Origin: Methanothrix sp.
GTDB taxonomy: Archaea > Halobacteriota > Methanosarcinia > Methanotrichales > Methanotrichaceae
Length of the DNA: 64,000 nucleotides
Direction of reading: 5' to 3'
Assembly (NCBI GenBank): GCA_025361645.1
Contig: JANYKI010000026.1
Span: 18 to 64,017, forward strand
In this document: positions 904 to 48,191 of the stretch, one piece after another
How positions within the stretch are numbered: the stretch's first letter is position 1
Layout: each line of letters begins with the position of its first letter
Position numbers and translations under genes: made by a program
The notes under the pieces: generated by a model
Seen by the model: only the letters and a program-made list of their open reading frames with translations
Database searches by the model: none
What the model was told of the DNA's origin: nothing

Positions 904-1257
904 ATGCAGTCAAAAGCAAGACGTCCTGCAATCGAGAGAGCAAGGGACGCACGGCTGGAGAGGGGCGGCGATACCGATTATGAGCTATATGAACTGATTA
1001 GCGAACACTCTGGACAGGGCGCTTATGAGCTCTCTAAGCTGAATGGCTGGACTGCAGGCCGCACGCACTCATCAATATTGCGATTGGAGAAAAAAGGGCT
1101 CGTATTTGTGGAGCGTATTGTGCAGGGTGGGAGGACAAAGCTTGTAGTTCGCCCCAGGCCCTGGCAGGAGTTCTTCACTCCAAAGGAGCTTGAAGAAATG
1201 CGCCAGCCCGGATACTTCGATGAAGTCGAGAAAATGGTGAAGCGGACAGAGGACTGA
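904..1257 (+). CDS. winged helix-turn-helix protein
   Basis: 117 aa; YELSKLNGWTAGRTHSSILRLEKKGLV is a wHTH-type pattern. Confidence 0.7.
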   Translation: MQSKARRPAIERARDARLERGGDTDYELYELISEHSGQGAYELSKLNGWTAGRTHSSILRLEKKGLVFVERIVQGGRTKLVVRPRPWQEFFTPKELEEMRQPGYFDEVEKMVKRTED

Positions 1258-1290
1258 AGGGCCACATAATGGCATCTCTATCGACGTAAA

Positions 1291-1322
1291 AATTCAGTTT
1301 CCCATGGGAAAATTGCGGAAAA
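1291..1322 (+). repeat. 32-bp direct repeat, copy B (AATTCAGTTTCCCATGGGAAAATTGCGGAAAA)
   Basis: Matches 600-631; contains the perfect palindrome TTTCCCATGGGAAA at 1298-1311. Confidence 0.85.
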
Positions 1323-1361
1323 AAATAGTTACGGATCTTCGCGATTTTCAATTTTTAAAGG

Positions 1362-1417
1362 AGTCTCTGTGCGTCCTCTGTGTCTCTGTGGTGGAGTAGT
1401 CGTTAGCTGTTGGTTAT
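1362..1417 (-). repeat. core-only inverted copy of the CACAGAG composite repeat
   Basis: Reverse complement reads ATAACCAACAGCTAACGACTACTCCACCACAGAGACACAGAGGACGCACAGAGACT, matching the core ATAACCGAACAACTAACGATCTCACCACAGAGG... at 3548, 4518, 5447, 6428. Confidence 0.85.
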
Positions 1418-1515
1418 GGTCCAAATGGTCAACGGTACTACCACCTTTGCATGACACGGGAAGCGCACAAAGGACTTGATTTATTCCATGATCGGTTCGG
1501 CAGAGTTAACCAATC

Positions 1516-1905
1516 TCAGCGCGCGTCGCAGTACCTCACCTCATCCACATCCAGCATGAGGGGCGTACCGGGCTCAAAGTTGGTTATCTTTCTCACCCGG
1601 CCCACGGCCACAAGTTGCAGTTGTACTCTTGCCGCCTGAGACTCACGCTCTTCGTAGTAGTCCTCGTTTGATTGAACTGTGCGATGGGTAATGATCTGTA
1701 GAGCTCTTATGCTGGCGATGAGCCCCCCAGTTCCTGGAACTATATCCGGGGCACTGGACTGCGTAAGAAAGATCCGGTCTCCCGGCTGAACACGCAAAAG
1801 CGTAAAGAAGTTGTTGGGGCTACGAATCTCCACCGTCCTGACCCGAGCTGCAGTAAGCTCATTCATCACATGTCTTGCCAATCCCGTTAGCGCTATGTAG
1901 ATCAT
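1516..1905 (-). CDS. DUF473 family protein
   Basis: 129 aa; ALTGL...RTVEIRSPNNF pattern of the archaeal DUF473 family, adjacent to the PAC2 gene. Confidence 0.75.
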   Translation of the reverse strand: MIYIALTGLARHVMNELTAARVRTVEIRSPNNFFTLLRVQPGDRIFLTQSSAPDIVPGTGGLIASIRALQIITHRTVQSNEDYYEERESQAARVQLQLVAVGRVRKITNFEPGTPLMLDVDEVRYCDAR

Positions 1906-1911
1906 GAGGCA

Positions 1912-2655
1912 TCACCCGTACATGGGAAACTCTTTGGGCATCTGAGCTTGCTGTTCCTCGGAAGAGGTGGTTTTCATCTGCTGGGCCAGTTGCGCCATCT
2001 GCACCTCGATCTGCTCAGCCTGCTCGGAGAGCTTGGCCGTGTTTATCCCCAAATCGTAGATCTTATTAAGCGTCTCGATAGTGGCAATGGCCGCTTTTGG
2101 GTCGGGTTCCGCTGAAGCCGTCTCGCCCAAAAGGCAGATAGCGGGTAGATTTCTTATGCGGCACTCGTTCATGATGCTGCCGGTAATGCCGGTAATTGTC
2201 CCCATCTCAAAGATCTCGGCCTTGTCCTTTATCTTATCAAGCAAATCTTGCCGGCTTACTGCGCCAAAGACCCGGTGCAGGTCTCCCATCACCGTTATGC
2301 CAGCCAGGCAGACCATCTCTCGAGCGCCTATAGACTCTGCAAAGGATACAATCTCCTTTCCAATCTCATAAGAGGCCAGGGGATGTACGGGAATGTCGGC
2401 TGTGAGGATTACCAGGCCCTTGGCCACATCCTCATAAATGCGAACCGGCATGTTCACAACGCCGCCTGTGAGAACGGCCAGCGGAGGGAAGTACCGGGAG
2501 CTCATGGCCCCGAGATAGGTCATTTTCAGTTCGTTGACGATGTACTGGCTGGCAATGTTTCCTACCAGGCCAATTCCCGGGAATCCCTCGATCAAGAGTG
2601 GGTTCTTGACGGAGGGCTCATTCTCAAGGATTACCTGGACGATTTCCTTATCCAT
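1912..2655 (-). CDS. proteasome assembly chaperone (PAC2) family protein
   Basis: LIEGFPGIGLVGNIA N-terminal motif; ICLLGET...PDPKAA; C-terminal MYG. Confidence 0.9.
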   Translation of the reverse strand: MDKEIVQVILENEPSVKNPLLIEGFPGIGLVGNIASQYIVNELKMTYLGAMSSRYFPPLAVLTGGVVNMPVRIYEDVAKGLVILTADIPVHPLASYEIGKEIVSFAESIGAREMVCLAGITVMGDLHRVFGAVSRQDLLDKIKDKAEIFEMGTITGITGSIMNECRIRNLPAICLLGETASAEPDPKAAIATIETLNKIYDLGINTAKLSEQAEQIEVQMAQLAQQMKTTSSEEQQAQMPKEFPMYG

Positions 2656-3062
2656 GCAAAAATGTTAGGCATTTATCTGAGATAAGAGCATCGCTTCATG
2701 AAGGAGGATGACAAAAAGGATGACAAAAAATTTTTCCCCACAATTCGGGGGCTTTGCACATCATGCAAAACTATATTTGCCCATACTAACAACTCCACCT
2801 TAATGAATCGTAATGATTTTTTTAAGATTCTGGAATAATTTATGGTGATATAGATTTATCGGATATATAGATGAAGAAATCCATTCTGTTGGCAAAAGAA
2901 GAAAGCGTGGCGGACTTATAAAATCTGACCGGATATTAAGATTGATAGTAATGACGGGAAAAGCACTATTTGATAATAATGAGATTAAAAATTATAAAAA
3001 ATTTCTAAAACAATTATCAAGAAAAGTATTCACTCATTTAATCATTATTGTTGAATGTGGAA

Positions 3063-3164
3063 TCATGATGCTTGATCAATCACTTCACCGATGCCGGGTG
3101 CATCATAGATTCCTGCCACTAAACCCAAATGTCCAACTATGCATGCATAGATATCCACATTCAT
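3063..3164 (-). pseudogene. remnant of an IS1634-family transposase N-terminus (DUF4277-like)
   Basis: Hand translation MNVDIYACIVGHLGLVAGIYDAPGIGEVIDQAS*; GHLGLVAG...GIGEVID resembles the IS1634 transposase start; stops after 33 aa. Confidence 0.6.
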
Positions 3165-3235
3165 GCTACTGCCCCGAGATGATCTAATAGCCTTCTAATT
3201 AAAATATGTTATCTATATTACTGCGGATTGTGGGA

Positions 3236-3325
3236 CTTAACGACGGTTCAGGCAGTCCCCGGCTTGGCGATTCTTACGGGGCTACCGAAAGCAGCGCCCG
3301 GCATCCTGTGAGCAGCATCGTCGGC
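3236..3325 (+). repeat. composite repeat, tail-only copy
   Basis: CTTAACGACGGTTCAGG...AAGCAGCGCCCGGCA...GCAGCATCGTCGGC aligns with 4591-4681. Confidence 0.8.
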
Positions 3326-3499
3326 GGTGCTCCTGCTCGCCTTCCCGTTCGCCGCTTGTGGGCCGGGCCGTCCGGGGCTTGCTGCTCTGTCATCAGGGCG
3401 GTCTGGATTGCCTGACAAGCGCTCGTGCAAGGGGGGCCGGGAGGCCGGTCGGGCCTGAGAGCCAGGAAGAGCTGGACTCTGGCGAAGGCGGCTTCTCCG

Positions 3500-3682
3500 T
3501 GGGCTGGATTTTAGGAAACGATCGCCGTTTCTTATTATTATTAGCTTATAATTATAACCGAACAACTAACGATCCCACCACAGAGGCACAGAGGCACAGA
3601 GCGCACAGAGGACGCACGGAGATGGCTCTTTAACAAAGGTTCGGGACCATTGTCCGGCTTAGCAATTCTTGCGGGCTACCGG
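3500..3682 (+). repeat. composite repeat copy 1 (core, 5 heptamers, tail)
   Basis: GGATTTT...ATAATTATAACCGAACAACTAACGATC at 3548, CACAGAG-type heptamers, TTAACAAAGGTTCGGGAC...TTCTTGCGGGCTACCGG. Confidence 0.92.
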
Positions 3683-3776
3683 ATACCTGCGACCGTCTCT
3701 TCGGGGGGGGCAGGAGGCCGGGCGGGCCGGGATCAGGAGGTGCTTAAGGAATGCTGCCGATTACTAAAATAAATAG

Positions 3777-4319
3777 CTAGAGGGCGATCTTAGCTTTTAT
3801 TTGGGAGACGTCGGATTCTATTCTTATCAACCTGCCTTCCAGGTTTTCCTTTAGATCAACGCGAAGCTCTCTAATCTCGCTTACGACAGCATCGCGTGAC
3901 TCATTGATAGACTCATTAAGGTCTTCATGTGTCTCCGTCAATTCTTTGCGAGTTGCCTTTATTTCGTTCAATATCTTTTCGTTTACTACGATAAGCTTCG
4001 TGAGCAGTTCTGCTGCTACATCCAGTCTCTGATCCGTCTCGCCTCCGGATACAACCTTGACAAAGCTGTCAAAATCGCCTGTTGCAGGAGAATGCTTGCT
4101 CTTGATATCAACCACATTGATAATTGTGTTCTTGATAGCCAAAGCCGCCAGCAGGCTCTCCAGATCACACGCTTCGCCCTCCGCCACCACCTTGACTCGC
4201 CCATCATCCAGATTCTGCACGTAACCTTTCAGACCGAAGTCACGAGCAATGGTGAGAACTCTGGCTCTGTAGCCGGTCTTCTGGACCTTGCCGGAGACGT
4301 AAGCGGTTAGCCTTTGCAT
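3777..4319 (-). CDS. acylphosphatase-domain protein with C-terminal coiled-coil-like extension
   Basis: MQRLTAYVSGKVQKTGYR...GLKGYVQNLDDGRVKVVAEG is the acylphosphatase signature. Start set at ATG 4319; the track's upstream 72 codons come from the repeat. Confidence 0.85.
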   Translation of the reverse strand: MQRLTAYVSGKVQKTGYRARVLTIARDFGLKGYVQNLDDGRVKVVAEGEACDLESLLAALAIKNTIINVVDIKSKHSPATGDFDSFVKVVSGGETDQRLDVAAELLTKLIVVNEKILNEIKATRKELTETHEDLNESINESRDAVVSEIRELRVDLKENLEGRLIRIESDVSQIKAKIAL

Positions 4320-4376
4320 GAGGACATATGTTGCTCTCTTTTTATTTAAGCCTTTAACCCTTGGGCGGAGAACCAT

Positions 4377-4681
4377 TTTGCAGCAGGCTCCGGCCCGCAT
4401 GCGTGCGCTCGGGCGGAGGCGCTGCTGCCCGCGTGGGTAGCCTGCTGTGGGCTTGGCTGGGCGATCTTCCGGCGCGGGATTTTGGAAGATGCTGCATCTC
4501 GCTATTACTATTAGCCGATAATTATAACCGAACAACTAACGATCTCACCACAGAGGCACAGAGCGCACAAAGGACGCACAGAGACGACCTCTTAACGAAG
4601 GTTCGGGACAATTCTACAACTTGACGATCCTTGCGGGCTATCGGAAGCAGCGCCCGGCAGCCAGTGGGCAGCATCGTTGGC
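4377..4681 (+). repeat. composite repeat copy 2 (GC-rich arm, core, 4 heptamers, tail)
   Basis: Most complete copy; core at 4518. Confidence 0.95.
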
Positions 4682-4795
4682 AGGATACCGATTGCGCTTC
4701 TGTTTCGTTGCCCGAGGACCGGGCCATCCGGGACTGCGGCGCTGCTCGCCAGGCGGGCCTCGATGCCAGGTTGAAATATGTCTTTCGAATTGATG

Positions 4796-5011
4796 CTATC
4801 CGAGATGCTTCAAGAAATCCTCTTCAGTTATGTCCAACTGCTTGAGAATTTCGTAGAACAGCCAGTTGCCTATTTCGCTATTGCCGTGTACTGGAATCGT
4901 TGTCGCTCGACCGTCGGGGTGCTTCCATCTGGCGTGACTTCCTTTTTGCCTCACCATCTGAAATCCGAGCTTCTTTGCGACCTTTTGCAGGTCACGAGCT
5001 TTGGCAGGCAT
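4796..5011 (-). CDS. hicA: HicA family toxin
   Basis: LGFQMVRQKGSHARWKHPDGRATTIPVH; overlaps the upstream hicB. Confidence 0.92.
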   Translation of the reverse strand: MPAKARDLQKVAKKLGFQMVRQKGSHARWKHPDGRATTIPVHGNSEIGNWLFYEILKQLDITEEDFLKHLG

Positions 5012-5222
5012 GAACGGCCTTCACATCGATATCTTCCGGAAGCATGCGACCTTCTTCGTTGTACTCTTCCAGGATCATCTCGAAGACGTTTATCAGCTCA
5101 GATTGTGCCTCTTCGGGTGTTTGGCCCCAGGAGTGGCAGCCTGGAATAGCAGGGACGTAGGCTGCATAGGTGCCGTTGTCTTCAGGGCGGAGCACTATTG
5201 TGTAGTCATAAAGGCGTTTCAT
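4992..5222 (-). CDS. hicB: HicB family antitoxin (short form)
   Basis: YTIVLRPEDNGTYAAYVPAIPGCHSWGQTPEEA. Confidence 0.92.
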   Translation of the reverse strand: MKRLYDYTIVLRPEDNGTYAAYVPAIPGCHSWGQTPEEAQSELINVFEMILEEYNEEGRMLPEDIDVKAVHACQSS

Positions 5223-5320
5223 CAGGATTTACTCAGTCCTATTTGCATATAATACTACTCAATGATGTCTGCGCGTACAAAGATGCGATTCCACACCTTG
5301 GCAACACGAGAAAAGGATCG

Positions 5321-5578
5321 GCCCCGCATGCGTGCGCTCGGGCAGGGGGCGCTGCTGCCCGCGCGGGCCGCCGACTGCGGGCTTGGAAGGATGTTTTTCC
5401 GGGCGCGGGATTTTGGAAAGCAATGGCAATTGGTTATTATTATCTGATAATTATAACCGAACAACTAACGATCTCATCACAGAGGCACAGAGCGCACGGA
5501 GACGACCTCTTAACGAAGGTTCGGGACAATTCTACTGCTTGACGATCCTTGCTGGCTACCGGCAGCCGCGCCTGGCAG
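5321..5578 (+). repeat. composite repeat copy 3 (arm, core, 3 heptamers, tail)
   Basis: Core at 5447; tail CTCTTAACGAAGGTTCGGGACAATTCTAC identical to copy 2. Confidence 0.95.
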
Positions 5579-5720
5579 TTCGTCGCCCATGCAGAAGAGA
5601 AGGCACTGGTCCCGGATCGCTTTCCGTTCGCTGCCTGTGGGCCGGTCGTCCAGGTCCGTGTCGTCGTCTGCCTGCATATCGTTCAGGTCTTAATTTATGG
5701 TGCAGAGAAAAAGAGGATAG

Positions 5721-5942
5721 CTAATCTGCGAAGAGCCACTCATCACGAGTGATCTCACCTTCTCGAAGGATCTCAGAGATTAGATTTGTGCCAATCTCTC
5801 GTCGATGAGAGTTCGGTATGCGCACAAAATTATCACCGCGGACCATGAAGTCATGATCTGAACCGGGAAACGGTCCCTCAAATCCAATTTTTCTCAATCG
5901 CCTGATCAGCTTCGCCCTTGAAACCGGCACAAGTTTACTCAA
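5721..5942 (-). CDS. hicA: HicA family toxin
   Basis: LRKIGFEGPFPGSDHDFMVRG...VRIPNSH, a HicA-type dsRBD pattern. Confidence 0.85.
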   Translation of the reverse strand: MSKLVPVSRAKLIRRLRKIGFEGPFPGSDHDFMVRGDNFVRIPNSHRREIGTNLISEILREGEITRDEWLFAD

Positions 5943-6192
5943 TAGCGCTCACCGGTTCAATTGATGCAGTTATCAGGTGGCCGCCAATTGGTGGTATGGA
6001 CCGCCCCATGCGAAGCCTAAGAGCGATCCAGCCTTCAATAACCGAGATAAGCTCTTTGCGGGCCTCTTCAACCGTTTTGCCCGTAGCCCAGGCGCCATGA
6101 AGCTCTGGTACTGAAACAAAGATAGGATCCTCATCTTCGATGGTTTTGTAAACAGCCCTTTCCAGAGCCGCCTCAATATACTCGGCGAACAT
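5935..6192 (-). CDS. hicB: HicB family antitoxin (short form)
   Basis: IFVSVPELHGAWATGKTVEEARKEL...EGWI. Confidence 0.88.
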   Translation of the reverse strand: MFAEYIEAALERAVYKTIEDEDPIFVSVPELHGAWATGKTVEEARKELISVIEGWIALRLRMGRSIPPIGGHLITASIEPVSAIE

Positions 6193-6305
6193 ATTGAGCT
6201 TATATCGTGAGGTAAAGGAAATATACCTTGCGCCATTGCCTTTTGAAGCACATCGGAGCCGGCAAAGATGCTTGATGCCTGAACAGTTGCCGGGCCGCAG
6301 GGCAA

Positions 6306-6520
6306 GCGCCCGCGTGCGCTCGGGCGGGGGGCGCTTGTGCCTACGTGGGCAGCCGCTCGCTGTGGCCTGGCAGTTTTGCGGGCGCGGGATTTTGGAAGAT
6401 GCTGCATCTCGCTATTACTATTAACTGATAGTTATGACCGAACAACTAACGATCTCACCACAGAGGCACAGAGCGCACGGAGGACGCACAAAGACGATTC
6501 CATAATGAAGGTTTCGAGAC
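6306..6520 (+). repeat. composite repeat copy 4 (arm, core, 4 heptamers, truncated tail)
   Basis: Core ATAGTTATGACCGAACAACTAACGATC at 6428; the tail ends 6 bp before the stop codon of the 6526..7260 gene. Confidence 0.93.
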
Positions 6521-6525
6521 CCCGT

Positions 6526-7260
6526 TCAAACCTCGAATAACTTGAGTTCTATCCTTGGTGGTCCTTCGATTCTGTCATCTAATTTTATGGTGGATGCATT
6601 TCCATCATTGCCGTTACCTGGAATATAGCAGCGCTTCATAGCACCTTCTTTCTGTACGTGAGCAGAACAAGCTGATGCAATGCCATAATGGCAGAACTTC
6701 TTCATTGCGTCCGTTGATCTAAAGCCATGACCTCTGTGAATAAGATCAACAACAATCTTTGGCCTCCTTTTTATCAATGCATTCCTTATGCGCTCATTGA
6801 AAAGTTCTCCGCATAATAGGACGCCAACAAGCCCGCCTTCTGTCGTAAGAAGACGAACATCATCGTAGCTCTGCCGTTTAGCTTCCCATTGATTGTCGGT
6901 TAGTGTAATTGGCTGCCCACTCCGTTTATTCCAGTGTCTGGTAGATGATCTTTGTTCCCAACTATATGTCATTTTGTCAACTGGACTCCAGGCATATCCA
7001 TATGCTTGGGGCCAACTCTGATCGTCCACGCCAAAAACTACAGCACGCTCTAAGCTACGAGCTTCATCTATGAGCACATCTGCTATTTGTTGCCTTGATT
7101 TAAAGTTATTACCAACTACGAAGCCCCCGGGAAGTACTAATATATCCGCGCCCAATGATTTCGCCTTTGCCATCGCCAGTTTTCCGGCTTTTAGTCGGCC
7201 TTCATTTTTGGATTCGTCTTCAGGCCCTTTGCTCCCAACAGTAGTTATGGCAACCTTCAT
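6526..7260 (-). CDS. divergent carbon-nitrogen hydrolase (nitrilase-fold) protein
   Basis: KVAITTV N-terminal strand, ADILVLPG (PE motif has lost Glu), VGVLLCGEL (nucleophile Cys retained). Confidence 0.6.
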   Translation of the reverse strand: MKVAITTVGSKGPEDESKNEGRLKAGKLAMAKAKSLGADILVLPGGFVVGNNFKSRQQIADVLIDEARSLERAVVFGVDDQSWPQAYGYAWSPVDKMTYSWEQRSSTRHWNKRSGQPITLTDNQWEAKRQSYDDVRLLTTEGGLVGVLLCGELFNERIRNALIKRRPKIVVDLIHRGHGFRSTDAMKKFCHYGIASACSAHVQKEGAMKRCYIPGNGNDGNASTIKLDDRIEGPPRIELKLFEV

Positions 7261-7366
7261 TTTTATCCTCTCTGTGACTTGCTCACATAGCTATGAATAG
7301 TTATAGTGATTGCATTAAGGCCATTCATGAAAACATTTTAAAACGTTGGTGTATGAAGCGACCTTT

Positions 7367-8071
7367 ATGACAATTGCTGATGCAACTGATCAACAAGTTG
7401 AGACTTTAGTGGCAATGGCTAAAAATCTTCGAAACACATACAGAAAGGAATTGGAGTGCAAGAAGGAAAAAGGACATGCCACACTCAAGAGACCTGATTT
7501 CTTGTGGCATGAACTATTAGTGAGCTATTCAACTTGGGGCGGCATAAGCAGAAACGAAGGTATGATCACCGACAAAAATAGAAATCAGCAGATCACTTAT
7601 GATGAACTGAAGAACCTCAGCAATGAAGACCGTGTGAATAGGATTAGGCAAATCTTGAAGGATGCAAAGGTACACTACTACAAGAAAAAAGCTCCGATGC
7701 TTGCACGATGCTTTGAGATAATTGAAGAGATGGGTGGATTAGAGCAGGCCAATGCAATGCTGCTCAATAAAAAATGTGCAGCAGAAATGATTGAATTTCT
7801 GGACGATTTTCCGGGAATAGGTCCGAAGTATGCAAGAAATATTATGATGGATTGCCATCATCCGTTTTTCCGTGAAAAGATAGCGCTTGATTCACGCATC
7901 CGGTCCGTATCTAACGAATTGGGGCTGAATCTAAAGGCGTACCAGGATCATGAAAAATTCTACTTGAATATTGCAGAAGAAGCGGGAATAGAGGGATGGG
8001 AATTAGACCGATTGATTTTTGAACACAGAGACGAATTTCTAAATGCCTTAAGATCCACCTCCGAGCCTTAA
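7367..8071 (+). CDS. HhH-GPD-type DNA glycosylase/AP lyase-like protein
   Basis: FPGIGPKYARN helix-hairpin-helix with Lys, then IALDSRI Asp. Start is ATG 7367 or TTG 7346. Confidence 0.7.
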   Translation: MTIADATDQQVETLVAMAKNLRNTYRKELECKKEKGHATLKRPDFLWHELLVSYSTWGGISRNEGMITDKNRNQQITYDELKNLSNEDRVNRIRQILKDAKVHYYKKKAPMLARCFEIIEEMGGLEQANAMLLNKKCAAEMIEFLDDFPGIGPKYARNIMMDCHHPFFREKIALDSRIRSVSNELGLNLKAYQDHEKFYLNIAEEAGIEGWELDRLIFEHRDEFLNALRSTSEP

Positions 8072-8121
8072 TGCGTTACCATCTCCCAAACCTTTATCTC
8101 CTATCACCTCTTCCCTCCTTT

Positions 8122-8171: not shown

Positions 8172-8759
8172 ATGAAGTCTTTTTACAGTTATATCAGTGA
8201 TGCTTGGTCCTCTCCTCGAGAGGGATATGTTGGCGCACTGCGGCAGGACAGGCTCAAGGCCTGGCGCCAGGAAAGCACCGTGCAGAGGATAGATAAGCCC
8301 ACCCGCCTGGACAGGGCGCGCGCGCTCGGCTACAAGGCCAAGCAGGGCATTGTCATGGCACGTGTCAAGGTAAGACGCGGTGGACGGCGCAAGTCCCGTT
8401 ATGAGAGGAACCGAAAGACCAGCAAGATGGGCGTGAACGCCATCAGCATGGGCAAGTCCATTCAGAGGATCGCTGAGGAGCGGGCCGGAAGACGGTACCG
8501 CAACATGGAAGTTCTAAACTCTTACTGGGTGGCTGAGGATGGCAAGCAGAAGTTCTACGAGGTCATTTTAGTGGACCCGTGTGCTCCCTCCATCATGAAT
8601 GATAAGAACCTTAACTGGGTCTGCAATGATGTTCATCGCGGTAGGGCCGTGCGCGGCAAAACCAGCGCCGGTCGCAAGGGCAGAGGCCAGAGGCACAAGG
8701 GCTTCGGCACTGAGAAGACCAGGCCCGGCATCAGAGCCCACGACGGAAAAGGAAAGTAA
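8172..8759 (+). CDS. rpl15e: 50S ribosomal protein L15e
   Basis: [21 protein letters not shown]; [10 protein letters not shown]. Confidence 0.98.
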
Positions 8760-26329: not shown

Positions 26330-28140
26330 ATGAACGTCTCAGAGCTGTTTCAAATTGTCGGAGAGCAATACCCCGTCCTCACCAAATATCCGTTTTGGGT
26401 AGTTGCTATTCTAGCCATCGCAGCTATTATAATTATAATGATTAGCGAGGTAGCGAAAAAAGCTGCTGTCGATATTTATGATAAATCCAAAGAGGTTCTA
26501 AAAGCAACAAACATATCAAGAGAACCCGCCTCACCTCCAATTGAGATTGAACCGACAAAACCCCTTCAATTGACCTTTGCATTGTCACAACGAAATCCCA
26601 ACTTCACCGGCAGAGAGGATATTCTAGCTGAATTAAGAGCCGCTCTTACATCAGGACTGGTTGCTGGGTGGAAGCAAGTTTTGACAGGCCTAGGCGGAAC
26701 AGGTAAGAGCCAGATCGCAGTGGAATACGCTTACCGTCATAAGGAAGAGTACAAATTTATCTGGTGGCTGCAATCGGAAGAACCTGCGGCGTTAGCCTCG
26801 AACTATGCTGGTTTGGCCAAGGAACTTTATTTGCCGGAAAAAAGTTGTGCTGATCAGACTGCAATCATTGTCGCTGTGAAACGATGGCTGGGAGACAACA
26901 GCAATTGGCTGCTCATTTTCGATAACGCCAAGAGTTCCGATGACATCGAGCAATACTTTCCCAGGGAGGGCACAGGCCATATAATAATCACTTCTCGCAA
27001 TCCCAATTGGGGGCACTTAGCAGGAGTTTTGCCAATCCAGGTGTTTAAACGAAGTGAATCGGTGGACTTTCTTATCAAGCGGACGAAAAAAGGGAACCAG
27101 GAATCTGCAGACAAGTTGGCTGATGCCTTGGGCGACCTGCCCCTGGCATTAGAGCAGGCAGGAGCTTACATCGAAGAGACTGCCACATCCTTTGCTGATT
27201 ATCTAAAGCTCTTCCTGGAGCAGCGAAGCAAGATTTTGAAACGAGGCAAGTCTACTGCTTATCCCGAAACCATCGCTACTACCTGGGACATTTCTTTCCA
27301 GGCCATAAAAAAAGATTTCCCAGAGGCTATCGATCTGCTTAAGCTCTTTGCTTTCCTAGCTCCAGATAATATTCCAAGATCCCTTTGATTGAAGGAGCTG
27401 CAAATCTGCCCGAACCATTGAGCTCTGTCTTGCAGGATGGCATAAAGCTCAATGATGCTGTCGCGGCTCTGAGGCGATACTCGCTGATCAATGTCACAGA
27501 CGATATGTTTTCCGTCCATCGACTCGTGCAAGCGGTGACGTTGGACAGGTTGGACGAAAATGAGAAAAAAAGATGGGCAGAGGCTGCTGTAAAGCTTGTG
27601 AACAAGGCTTTCCCCTTTTACAGTGATGATGTCACGACCTGGCCCGCTTGTTCCTTGTTGCTGGCCCATGCTTTGACTTCGACAAAACTCGCAGAAAAAC
27701 TTGAAGTAGCTCCAGAGACAACGGGACGCCTTCTGAATCAGGCCGGCATATATTTGAAAGGAAGGGCAGATCTTTTGGATGCCAAAGCGCTTCACGAGCG
27801 GGCTCTGGCCATCGGTGAGAAAGTATACGGTCCCGATCATCCCCAAGTAGCCATTTATGCTAACAACCTCGGCTTAGTGCTGCAATCGCTGGGCGATCTG
27901 CAGGGAGCAAAAAAACATTACGAGCGGGCTCTGGCCATCGATGAGAAGGTCTACGGTCCCGATCATCCTGATGTAGCTATTGACGTTAACAACCTCGGCT
28001 TCGTGCTGAAATCGCTGGACGATCTGCAGGGAGCAAAAAAACATTACGAGCGGGCGCTTAAGATTTTCCAGAAAAGCTTGGGTGATCGTCATCCTAATAC
28101 GAAGACGGTACAAAATAACCTAAATTCGCTTGAAAAATAG
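26330..28140 (+). pseudogene. frameshifted NB-ARC (STAND) NTPase with C-terminal TPRs and an N-terminal TM segment
   Basis: RNPNFTGRE, GLGGTGKS (Walker A), LLIFDNA (Walker B), IIITSR. ORFs 26330..27388 and 27385..28140 fuse if one T is added to TTT at 27384-27386. 42-aa TPR repeats. Confidence 0.85.
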
Positions 28141-44804: not shown

Positions 44805-47091
44805 TCAGTCTTTGGAGAAGGCGGCCTGGATCAGGCTTAGGCCCCGGTCCCTCTTGTAGGCTTCGGCTACTTCCTTTAGCATGGCTTCGATCTGCACTTG
44901 AGTATATTTGAGTTCCGATGCCATGCCGGATAAAGCGTTGATGTCGCTTTCTGTTTCTGCGTGTCCAATAGACGCATCAATAACGCAGCTTAAAGCCACT
45001 AGCCTTAATCCCTCCTTCAACCGGCCTTGCTCCCTTGCTAGGAAGCCAAGCTGGTGGAATGTCGCAGCTTCGCACACCCGGTCGCCGATCTGCTGCACGA
45101 TTTTCATGGCCTTCTCGAAGTTTTCACGTGCAGCTTCGTAATCGCCTTTCTCCAAGTCGATATAGGCCAATTGATGCCAGATTAGGGCCTCACCCGCCAG
45201 ATTACCGATCTGTTCCCAGATTTTCATGGCCTTCCCGAAGTTTTCACGCGCTCCTTCGTAATCGATCTTCTTCAGATTGATCGTGCCCAGAGAATGCCAG
45301 GTCGCAGCTTCGCCCGTCCGGTCGCCGATTTGTTGCACGATTTTCATGGCTTTCCCGAAGTTTTCACGCGCTGCTTCGTAATCGCCCTTCTCCAAGTCGA
45401 TCGAGGCTAATCCGTGCAAGGCGAATCCGACTTCTTTTTGATTCAAGCCTACAGAAGCATCGATGCTGCTTTGATACCAGATTCGGGCTGAATCATACCC
45501 CCCTTGATCTGCAAAAGTTCTCGCTATCCAGATCATTGGCAAAGGATGCCGTGCCGGTCAGCCTCTTCCAGATTTGACTCAAAGTTGTCTAGCAGCAGTA
45601 GGAAGCGCCCTTCATTCAGAGCAGCAACTGCATCATGCAGTCTGCTTTCCACCGAGATCTTGGGATTATTCAGATTCTCGGCCAGGACTGCAAGCTCATC
45701 GGCCTTTTGCGTATTTCCCCGAGCTTTATGCATTCTTGCCGCTTTCCGGAAAGCATCACCAAAGGCCTGCAGCAGACGCGCCGAGTTCAAAGGATTCTCT
45801 TTGGAGCTGGGGACAGGGATCAGGATGAAACCGCTGGTTTCCAGCTTGCGAGCCAATCTGGTGGCCAGGGTGCTCTTGCCGCTGCCTCCCTGGCCGGTGA
45901 TGATCACGACCTGCAAATCACCGCTTCGCAGGGCGGGCAGGAGGCGCTGCTGCTCGCCCCTTCGACCAACAAAGTGCTCGGCGTGACCCTCTTTCATGCC
46001 GGGCAGAGCCTCCAGAACCATGTTTTGCCGAGTTAAAACTTCGGCTGGCTTATCGGGATCGAAGATCTGGATCTGATTGGTGGCGACATAGATAACGGGC
46101 AAGGTCTAGGATGGATCGCCTCGCTTTTCGCAGGCCTTCCAAGCTTCCTGGCGAGCCAAAAGGAGGGCACGGTCCACCGGCAGGCCGTCTTTGAGCGTTC
46201 TGTAAAACGTGCGGGCGAAATTGGTGGCCAGGTCGTCGGCGATGGAGGCGGCCTAGCCCACGGCCAGAGGCACCTCGGCACCTACCAGGCTCTGGCAGAT
46301 GCCGCTCAAAGCCTGCAAGGGCGCCTTGCCCGACTGGCAACCGCTCACAAAAACGCACTGCACGCCCGAACCAGCCAAAAACAGGCGCAGATCTTCCGAG
46401 GGGACGAGATCTGCGATGCCATCTTCTTTCTCGAAGGCAAAGCGACCCTGGCCATCCAGGACTGCGCCGTGCCCGGTCAGGTGGACAACGTGGGGCTTGA
46501 ACTCGCTCACCTTCTCCTTTAGCTCCTCAAAGGTGCCCAGGTCGCAAGAATCGAAGGCTACGTCCTGATCGTAAATGGCCCGGAATAACGCCTCCTCTTC
46601 CCGTTCGTAGTCCAGAGTCGGCTGATCCGAAGGAGAGCAGGCCATGAAGAGCAGGCGCAAAGGCCGGGCACGAAGCTCTCCTGTGAAAGGGGGCCATCTG
46701 CTTGACGGAGGAAGGAAAACGGCGGATTCTGAAGAGTGGATTGATGCCCAGGAAGTCACTATCCGGAGGAAGCAAGAGCTCCCAGGGGAGGTTAAGGATC
46801 TCAGGGATCTCCGAGGCGATGACCAGGAACCGAAGAGAGCCCACAGGAACTGCAGCCTTGATCTTCTCCCAGGACTCGCTAGGCGTCAGCATCTTTTTCC
46901 GGCCTGCAGCCCTGCTCGAAAAGGGCACCAAAGCCACGAGAGATCTCCCGCACTGCCTGAGAGTCAGGCAGGGAAAGGCTCTGGTTGCTGTGGAGAGCTT
47001 TTCCATCGAGCAGGATATGAAAGAGATAAGCGGTATTGGGACGCTCTCCTGATTCTTTTATGAACAATGTGATGATTGGCTCCTGGCCCAT
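44805..47091 (-). pseudogene. multiply disrupted CHAT (caspase-like) protease-STAND NTPase-TPR gene
   Basis: CHAT motifs LNLPWEL, HLTGHG, FVSGCQS; in-frame TAG at 46253-46255 between VPLAVG and AASIADD; P-loop GQGGSGKS, LLLLDNFE; TPRs in 44805..45542; frame breaks near 46880, 46680 and 45540. Confidence 0.85.
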
Positions 47092-48016: not shown

Positions 48017-48150
48017 TAATAGCGAGATGCAGCATCTTCCAAAATCCCGCGCCCGGAAGATCGCCCCGCCAAGCCCACAGGCGGCTGCCCACATAGGCAC
48101 AAGCGCCCCCGCCCGAGCGCACGCACGCGGGGCCGGAACCTGCTGCAAAA
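48017..48150 (-). repeat. inverted copy of the GC-rich arm of the composite repeat
   Basis: Reverse complement TTTTGCAGCAGGTTCCGGCCCCGCGTGCGTGCGCTCGGGC...GCGCGGGATTTTGGAAGATGCTGCATCTCGCTATTA aligns closely with 4377-4508. Confidence 0.93.
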
Positions 48151-48191
48151 TATGACTTGGCCGCTCTCCGATGGGATTATATACTCAGTAC

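Follow-up and report, generated by a model that had tools for sequence, protein, structure and literature searches.

The window analysed here is a stretch of 64 kb in contig C33 of an archaeal metagenome-assembled genome (MAG) of Methanothrix (2.43 Mb, 141 contigs, 51.6% GC). This genome is referred to as G000; other G numbers stand for its relatives and C numbers for contigs. Four plus-strand copies of a composite repeat are located within positions 3236-6520 of the window, upstream of rpl15e (8172-8759), with small gene cassettes among them. A GC-rich left arm ending in GGGATTTTGG is followed by a less conserved 20-nt segment, then by TATTAYTATTAGCYGATAATTATAACC, the spacer GAACAACTAACGATCYCAC, three to five heptamers and a GC-rich right arm. 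On balance, we find it probable that this is a mosaic non-coding repetitive element rather than an RNA gene, and that its centre is one arm of a heptamer array which behaves as selfish mobile DNA in Methanothrix.

The composite repeat and the cassette island upstream of rpl15e

The GC-arm family is multi-copy and non-coding, with about 16 copies in this genome and 62 gathered across the genus, and its orthologous sites upstream of rpl15e and tgt occur both filled and empty. Mean GC content is 0.62-0.75 in the arms and 0.19 in the core (62 copies from several genomes). The AT core and the heptamers make up a module of about 65 nt, which is one arm of a dispersed module and for which a profile (R1) was built from sequence only, using 20 modules outside the GC-arm family. 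This profile matches the 64-kb window at exactly five places (E 8e-15 to 3e-9): the four cores and, on the minus strand, positions 1365-1418. All four cores are single plus-strand arms lacking an inverted partner; the only foldback is the element at 1333-1512 which includes the fifth match.

The region opens with an uninterrupted GC-rich unit (3236-3520, plus strand), which runs from right-arm-like sequence into a left-arm end (...GGGCTGGATTTT) with no cassette between; right arms R1, R2 and R3 as well as left arm L3 map there by BLAST. The module of copy 1 (3551-3621, plus strand, E 4.2e-12) consists of the AT core, the spacer CGAACAACTAACGATCCCAC and five heptamers, and its right arm (3622-3776, plus strand) has an internal deletion relative to 3236-3520. 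Copy 2 also lies on the plus strand: its left arm (4375-4492) carries a GCCCG...CGGGC repeat and GGGATTTTGG, and is followed by TGCATCTCGCTATTAC (4493-4508), by the module (4521-4583, E 8.2e-15) with ATTATAACC, a spacer and four heptamers, and by the right arm (4584-4775). The plus-strand module of copy 3 (5450-5502, E 2.6e-9) has three heptamers, one 11-nt unit being missing. Copy 4 (6437-6493, plus strand, E 7.1e-14) has four heptamers, a degenerate AT palindrome and no right arm; its orthologue was found in G020, G046 and G015. A solo left arm ending in ...GCTATTAG is located on the minus strand at 48017-48160, beside a divergent TetR-like gene, and gives an inverted match to copy 2 (79 nt at 86%).

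Solo units in C40 and C128 have about 430 nt in common, and there the GC unit spans from one core to the next GGGATTTT. As these units run from core to core, the units are basically tandem and the cassettes lie inside the GC unit. We had considered the left and right arms as inverted repeats and rejected this, since the arms often show direct similarity, which follows from the tandem arrangement. An open frame through the core (NYNRTTNDLTTEAQ...) was rejected as coding because no unit change leaves it intact and one open frame is an inevitable result of the AT core. The idea that a site had been split at its AT core into 1365-1418 and 48017-48160 was also abandoned, the first being a member of a family of miniature inverted-repeat transposable elements (MITEs) described below as family A.

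Three minus-strand cassettes lie among the repeats, each with its own TATA-like box near the start codon. Cassette 1 (3777-4319) codes for a 180-aa protein with an acylphosphatase domain (PF00708, 68.7 bits), has its TATA-like box upstream and is found at other positions in G041, G046, G015 and G010. Cassette 2 (4796-5222) codes for a HicA toxin (4796-5011; PF07927, 72.8 bits) and a HicB antitoxin (4992-5222; PF15919, 36.5 bits). Cassette 3 (5721-6192) comprises a HicA-like gene (5721-5942), whose PF07927 score of 24.5 bits is just below the cut-off, and a UPF0150/HicB-like gene (5935-6192; PF21748, 89.3 bits); it lies upstream of cassette 1 in G046 and G015. Cassette orientation relative to the repeat is mixed: cassettes run against the repeat in the window and in C38 and along with it in C30.

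The order of genes upstream of rpl15e differs between species. It is cassette 1-HicAB-cassette 3-ORF244 in G000, cassette 3-cassette 1-HicAB-ORF244 in G046 and cassette 3-cassette 1-ORF244 in G015, while only cassette 1 is present in G041 and only copy 4 with ORF244 in G020. G010 has arms fused without a core at this place and one core with the heptamers deleted. PAC2 (1912-2655) and rpl15e are unlinked in other genomes, and the stretch from the PAC2-like gene to rpl15e (2700-8100) can be described as a species-variable island; the complete genome G020 has the two genes about 2.7 Mb apart, with rpl15e at 6475. ORF244 (open reading frame at 6526-7260, 244 aa) closes the array; Pfam gave nothing for it at E up to 0.001, and it is kept beside a helix-hairpin-helix glycosylase-like gene in G020, G046, G015, G010 and G024.

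TnpB genes of the IS605 type of insertion sequence (IS) are located at the edges of two GC-arm repeat arrays in contig C3 of G012. The same IS is found in our genome at C121:30850-31749 with different flanks, so its association with the arrays looks coincidental. TnpB/IS605 was rejected as a partner of the G012 arrays, as the IS ends exclude the repeat.

A dispersed heptamer-array module

The module begins with the lead-in (T)TATAACC-N5-CTAACGA-N5-CAC, which is followed by three to five CRCRRAG words at steps of 8, 9 and 11 nt. The lead-in is conserved, yet the arrays sit in several unrelated flank families. CACRRAG heptamers are located on the plus strand at 3579-3621 (five), 4549-4583 (four), 5478-5501 (three) and 6459-6493 (four), and on the minus strand at 1390-1365 (three), exactly the numbers counted in the earlier note. 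Differences among the window copies are gains or losses of whole units of 8, 9 or 11 nt: copy 1 has one additional 8-nt CACAGAGG and copy 3 is without the 11-nt GACGCACAGAG. Such whole-unit differences are the pattern that slippage or unequal exchange would give, and we presume that heptamer number changes by slippage of whole units.

Counting CACRRAG arrays of at least three words gives 63 in the genome, 61 of them intergenic; the relaxed word CRCRRAG gives 112. The modal number of heptamers is four and the spacing patterns (8,9,11), (9,9,11) and (8,8) are dominant. Across diverged module families the columns C-A-C-.-.-A-G are invariant in alignment while the spacers vary. Arrays are homotypic, with 73% of within-array word pairs identical against 25% after shuffling, and the word classes are CACAGAG (41 arrays), CGCGAAG (34), CACAAAG (29) and CGCAGAG (8). 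CGCGAAG replaces CACAGAG in the GC-arm core of C132, and many GC units also end in CGCGAAG arrays. Phased words with an invariant CAC..AG and stereotyped 8/9/11-nt spacing make a putative protein recognition array plausible.

A second abundant array family, TCA-CGCGAAGG-CGCGAAGC-CGCGAAG, occupies 33 sites of our genome, both singly and as inverted pairs (e.g., C38:21786, C97:748, C107:9342 and C132:22962). Certain variants of the terminal inverted repeat (TIR) of ISL3 (GGCTCTTCGCG...) have a core whose reverse complement is CGCGAAG, and in C78 an array of the CGCGAAG type comes 17 nt after a TIR.

The census with profile R1 counts 91 modules in this genome and 110 or more in each of four species, while five Methanothrix species have none; none were found in 18 genomes from other families of the class. 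Methanothrix soehngenii GP6 has about 59 modules. Sites differ in the same way. The region upstream of SepRS is, in most species, a short AT-rich spacer without heptamers; one module variant is present in G000, G013 and G010, another in G016, and remnants are seen in G015 and G020. Upstream of tgt, G000 and G012 have different modules at the same boundary. The range of copy numbers and the filled and empty sites are those of mobile or rapidly turning-over DNA, to judge from these genome comparisons, and not of a conserved regulatory site. The word "portable", used of the element in the earlier note, is thus well chosen: there are about 91 copies in the genome, in several unrelated flank contexts and with orthologous sites filled or empty.

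Two further observations concern these sites. G015 has at least a dozen module pairs, spread over many contigs, with identical profile scores (69.7 and 65.1 bits), suggesting that one palindromic element multiplied there very recently. G023, a distant species in which the profile finds no modules, shows the CACAAAG word in another arrangement: four to five tandem units of 14 nt (TCACAAAGTCAAGG) immediately precede the start of SepRS.

Three settings of the module can be distinguished in Methanothrix. It occurs (a) as inverted arms on either side of a small gene for a GxxExxY nuclease of the PD-(D/E)XK type, (b) as gene-less inverted pairs, some of them inside ISL3-family MITEs with 22-nt TIRs and 8-bp target-site duplications (TSDs), and (c) as a single arm between GC-rich arms, giving the 300-430-nt unit present four times in the window. 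Modules from these settings are homologous to one another.

Family A represents the MITEs of the second setting. It is a palindrome of 226-256 nt with the structure (CTCTGTG)n-GGTTATAACC-(CACAGAG)n. The complete copies in C28, C37 and C117 have 22-nt TIRs, with GGYTCYTCGCTRTTTCSAGTGG at one end and ...GGAAATAGCGAAGAGCC at the other, and all three are flanked by 8-bp TSDs (GATCTTTT, AAAAATT[A/G] and AAAAAAGA). These TIRs are identical to those of an ISL3 element of the same genome (C22:11937-13241), which starts with GGTTCCTCGC..., has the perfect TSD AGAAAATT and codes for a 423-aa product matching NF033550 with 319.7 bits. ISL3 transposase genes lie about 40 nt from TIR matches in several genomes. 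Genome-wide, the TIR matrix is unspecific at 12 bits (108 matches against 111 in the reversed control), and therefore only enrichment by proximity was used. The TIR motif is strongly enriched over a reversed control in six genomes (54 matches against 3 in G005).

The window element at 1333-1512 is a decayed member of family A, with which it aligns. It has a TIR at 1333-1348 (16.6 bits with the TIR matrix), reversed heptamers at 1365-1390 (profile match at 1365-1418, minus strand, E 2.6e-11), the centre GGTTATGG and a degenerate forward arm. Traces of a TIR may also be present on the left side of the GC-arm units. The remnant there scores up to 7.2 bits (copies 2 and 4), with a mean of -0.9 over 59 copies against -6.4 in controls, and the segment upstream of the AT core is colinear with a MITE end in G005. 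This segment, to which TGCATCTCGCTATTAC of copy 2 belongs, may be a decayed left TIR of the ISL3 type.

IS1634 was considered as the autonomous partner owing to a 2073-bp unit of G005 which resembles an IS with heptamer-bearing ends. The element concerned (G005:C1:2374800-2377500, positions 325-2397) is an IS1634-family member lying in the TTAA centre of a heptamer-bearing MITE; it codes for a 537-aa transposase (NF033559, 387.7 bits), and the uninterrupted site is found at G005:502600-503200. We rejected it as a partner, as it has TIRs of its own (CCCACATTCCGCA) with a 5-bp TSD and is simply nested in the MITE; IS1634-family copies in G043 and G046 are without heptamers.

GxxExxY genes (PF13366) are found in 9 of the 31 genomes of the genus. 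Modules flank the gene on both sides, within about 220 nt, in all eight loci fetched, and their density there is 50 matches in 25 kb against 0.037 per kb genome-wide. The GxxExxY gene of our genome is located in C27 (1172-1585; TIGR04256, 148.5 bits); an arm abuts its stop codon and a remnant lies upstream of its start.

The module is found far outside the genus as well. An exact scan for CACAGAGNCACAGAGNNCACRGAGNACNCACAGAG, with one genome per species, gave at least 119 stretches. Among the matches listed are Methanothrix, a Thermoplasmatales archaeon and a variety of bacteria: Acidobacteriota, Blastocatellia, Pyrinomonadaceae, Vicinamibacterales, Planctomycetota, Phycisphaerae, Gemmataceae, Isosphaeraceae, Gemmatimonadales, Chlamydiia and Omnitrophica. 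The three bacterial loci inspected are intergenic foldbacks built of the same words.

We suggest that the heptamers are recognition words for a protein taking part in the spread, and that long similar repeats serve as substrates of homologous recombination (loop-out and re-integration), which would shuffle the cassettes of toxin-antitoxin genes upstream of rpl15e. Among candidates for such a protein the GxxExxY nuclease is the best, and its involvement is the weakest step of the scheme. It is conceivable, though we would not bet on it, that CRCRRAG arrays are the recognition sites of this nuclease and form with it a self-propagating enzyme-repeat pair across Bacteria and Archaea, comparable to the RAYT/REPIN systems introduced below but of separate origin. 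Arrays would then have been captured secondarily by ISL3 MITEs and by the GC-arm mosaic that organises recombining toxin-antitoxin cassette islands, and the word classes would be specificity variants.

Several points weigh against mobile DNA spread in this way. The autonomous ISL3 element has no heptamers, so the module is to be seen as MITE cargo and the words are not needed for ISL3 transposition. Only 16 of the 112 arrays have a recognisable TIR within 200 nt, and the right side of the GC-arm units carries neither a TIR (mean -6.9, none above 8 bits) nor a TSD. No significant phyletic link was obtained between GxxExxY genes and modules (Fisher test, about 0.16), and no GxxExxY gene was detected in G016, G019 and G020, all of which have many modules. 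Homologous recombination between 300-430-nt direct repeats would be the simplest mechanism of cassette shuffling, and it is drawn from species comparisons only. A host function (promoter, small RNA or boundary element) could exist alongside mobility.

Promoter, binding-array, integron and folding hypotheses

The best of the competing explanations is a portable unit for transcription. The earlier note had described a self-complementary AT core about 25 nt upstream of the heptamers and suggested that it could fire in either direction. Such a core is indeed present in copies 1-3 (in copy 2, ATAATTAT at 4518-4525 and TTATAA at 4522-4527, 27 nt ahead of the first heptamer), but both motifs are broken in copy 4 (ATAGTTAT and TTATGA). 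With the palindrome acting as a TATA box and the start placed at the first heptamer, the product would be either a leader free of U or a small RNA (about 45 nt) terminated at the T-run found after many arrays, with the words as binding sites for a regulator or an RNA-binding protein. This agrees with the TTATAA of families A and B, which precedes the first heptamer by 27-29 nt, and with the absence of T from the array strand, often followed by T5-6. Some modules are also located 29-64 nt before the ATG of housekeeping genes (SepRS, RpiA, TtuA-like), where the insertion parts the older AT-rich upstream sequence from the gene, and a palindromic core could in principle work both ways.

However, array orientation shows no bias, 30 arrays facing the 5' end of a gene and 24 the 3' end, and with a matrix for the B recognition element and TATA box (GAAAGGTTTAAATA, from 37 tRNA upstream regions of this genome) the window cores score 0.3-2.4 nats, below the 99.9th genome percentile of 5.3. 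The fraction of sequences above 2.5 nats is 0.29 for regions upstream of arrays and 0.30 for random intergenic windows, as opposed to 0.61 upstream of true genes. Moreover, several module families have no TATA-like box or AT centre, five species of the genus do without any modules, and copies 2 and 3 in the window lack the T-run. A promoter is therefore not supported by these sequence tests, and we regard the transcription unit as unlikely.

An array kept for its function by the host, and read by a chromosomal protein such as a regulator, a nucleoid protein or a boundary factor, appears a shade more doubtful still. It would account well for word positions and spacing that stay fixed across diverged families, for homotypic words, as expected of a multimer on identical sites, and for the presence of the same array in distant phyla. 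On the other hand, copy number ranges from 0 to over 110 within one genus, orthologous sites are filled or empty, position relative to genes is not conserved, and the near-identical copies of G015 suggest a recent burst.

An integron-like system, with repeats as attC-like sites at which a dedicated recombinase inserts and excises toxin-antitoxin cassettes, is quite improbable. It is brought to mind by small, unrelated, promoter-bearing cassettes with one repeat family between them, by the dominance of toxin-antitoxin genes as in chromosomal integrons, by the permuted cassette order and by the partial copy at 48 kb, which ends inside the AT core. The variable orientation of the cassettes argues against it, as do the length of the repeats (300-430 nt, without an attC fold), the lack of an integrase among the ORFs neighbouring arrays and of a phyletic link to Y1 transposases, and the arm-to-arm fusions and internal deletions, which resemble homologous or illegitimate recombination.

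As for folding, the earlier note had proposed a hairpin that changes in sequence while its pairing is kept, a paired stem in the GC arm, and structural selection on RNA or single-stranded DNA. Small inverted repeats do exist in the window copies (GAAACG/CGTTTC at 3515-3531, AGATGC/GCATCT at 4487-4499 and CAAT/ATTG in copy 3; TGCATCTCGCTATTAC represents the 3' half of the proposed hairpin), but they fall in different registers of a homologous segment which can be aligned over 49 copies (consensus GGAAACRATG..GCNGTTTGC), so that no conserved hairpin emerges. Folding of 54 distinct copies is not above that of dinucleotide shuffles (mean z +0.23) and is similar to that of control windows in the arms, RNAalifold predicts no pairs on the 49 copies, and pairing at the named stem amounts to 54.3% of cells, compared with 52.6% in shuffles and 59.9% after a shift by one column. 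Copies 2-4 and the 48-kb copy do have the GCCC(G)...CGGGC stem (halves at 4393-4397 and 4410-4414 in copy 2). In other species, 6 of about 16 homologous left arms have CGTGC in the 3' half with no compensating change.

For the 416-nt unit as a whole, folding does not exceed that of shuffles, with z of +0.96 on one strand and +0.61 on the other, and the Rfam search proposed at the outset gave no gathering-score match over the window and no match at E up to 1 over 1200-6700. Although one can point to small inverted repeats in every window copy, a structured RNA or single-stranded DNA element maintained by compensatory change is hardly tenable after these folding, consensus-pair, stem and arm results.

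Compared with these alternatives, the mosaic of mobile repeats gives a concrete frame: a portable module whose copy number is hugely variable within one methanogen genus and whose word order is exactly common to Methanothrix and to soil and sediment bacteria. It also removes a false lead, there being no covarying hairpin and no demonstrated promoter. Methanothrix is a key aceticlastic methanogen known mostly from MAGs, and repeats of this kind account for broken contigs, for variable islands and for the shuffling of toxin-antitoxin cassettes, and make useful markers for strain-level genomics. If the GxxExxY link is true, a very common family of "hypothetical" proteins would acquire a function, and a second enzyme-repeat system would stand beside RAYT/REPIN (introduced below), one that crosses the domain boundary.

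Other repeats of the window are of different kinds. An array of clustered regularly interspaced short palindromic repeats (CRISPR) occupies positions 1-540. Its 37-nt repeat, GTTGCAGCGCACTTGAAAACCCGACAGGGATTGAAAC, occurs at least seven times, separated by spacers of about 35-40 nt; a single change is seen in the last copy, after which comes an AT-richer leader-like stretch. Tandem direct repeats are located at 45061-45420 (120 nt, three copies, 70-86% identity) and at 27769-28020 (126 nt, two copies, 81%), probably inside genes for repeat-domain proteins.

Comparison with known repeat systems

No description of the array strings or of the Methanothrix repeats was found in the open literature. 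Several known systems are similar in some of their features. Family A has much in common with ISL3-derived MITEs: it is short, non-coding and present in many copies, shares its TIRs with ISL3, has 8-bp AT-rich TSDs and shows presence/absence variation. Unlike such MITEs, it carries the heptamer module as cargo that the autonomous IS does not have. In the GC-arm family neither a clear TIR pair nor a TSD is seen, and most arrays have no TIR nearby.

The repetitive extragenic palindromes (REP) of Escherichia coli and Pseudomonas, together with bacterial interspersed mosaic elements (BIME), REP doublets forming hairpins (REPIN) and REP-associated tyrosine transposases (RAYT), offer another parallel. 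There too, short intergenic repeats occur singly, as inverted pairs and in mosaic clusters, copy numbers are species-specific, and the candidate partner is one dedicated enzyme gene flanked by the repeats. The arms described here differ in being built of tandem heptamer words instead of one imperfect palindrome, the gene codes for a GxxExxY PD-(D/E)XK protein instead of a Y1 HUH enzyme, and the word array spans two domains of life. A link to a RAYT-like Y1 transposase was rejected: PF01797 occurs whether or not a genome has modules, and in this genome it does not lie next to them.

The intergenic mosaic elements of Neisseria and the Correia elements are comparable in that repeat arrays separate variable cassettes and probably favour their recombination and exchange. 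Their MITE-like units are embedded in intergenic mosaics, as is the case here. The sequences are unrelated, and our elements differ in having an archaeal host and GC-rich arms.

Heptameric repeats (GGGNATC) of Xanthomonas and Nostoc are intergenic, transcribed and made of a modal four units (Rehm et al., 2015; PMC4692102). These repeats and the short tandemly repeated repetitive (STRR) sequences of cyanobacteria resemble ours in being intergenic heptamers, and the modal number of four in Xanthomonas and Nostoc is also that of our arrays. The known units are contiguous and G-rich and were proposed to form G-quadruplexes; the CACAGAG words, unlike them, are spaced at 8/9/11 nt, do not permit a G-quadruplex, follow a conserved lead-in and form inverted arms. 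This class is the nearest printed parallel found.

Chromosomal integrons, with their attC sites or Vibrio cholerae repeats (VCR), also have one repeat family between promoter-bearing cassettes rich in toxin-antitoxin genes, in variable order. They differ from the island described here, which has no integrase, attC fold or fixed orientation and whose repeats are three times longer. Overall, the element varies known kinds, namely MITE-borne or REP-like mosaic repeats, and what is unusual about it is a cross-domain heptamer-array module associated with GxxExxY genes.

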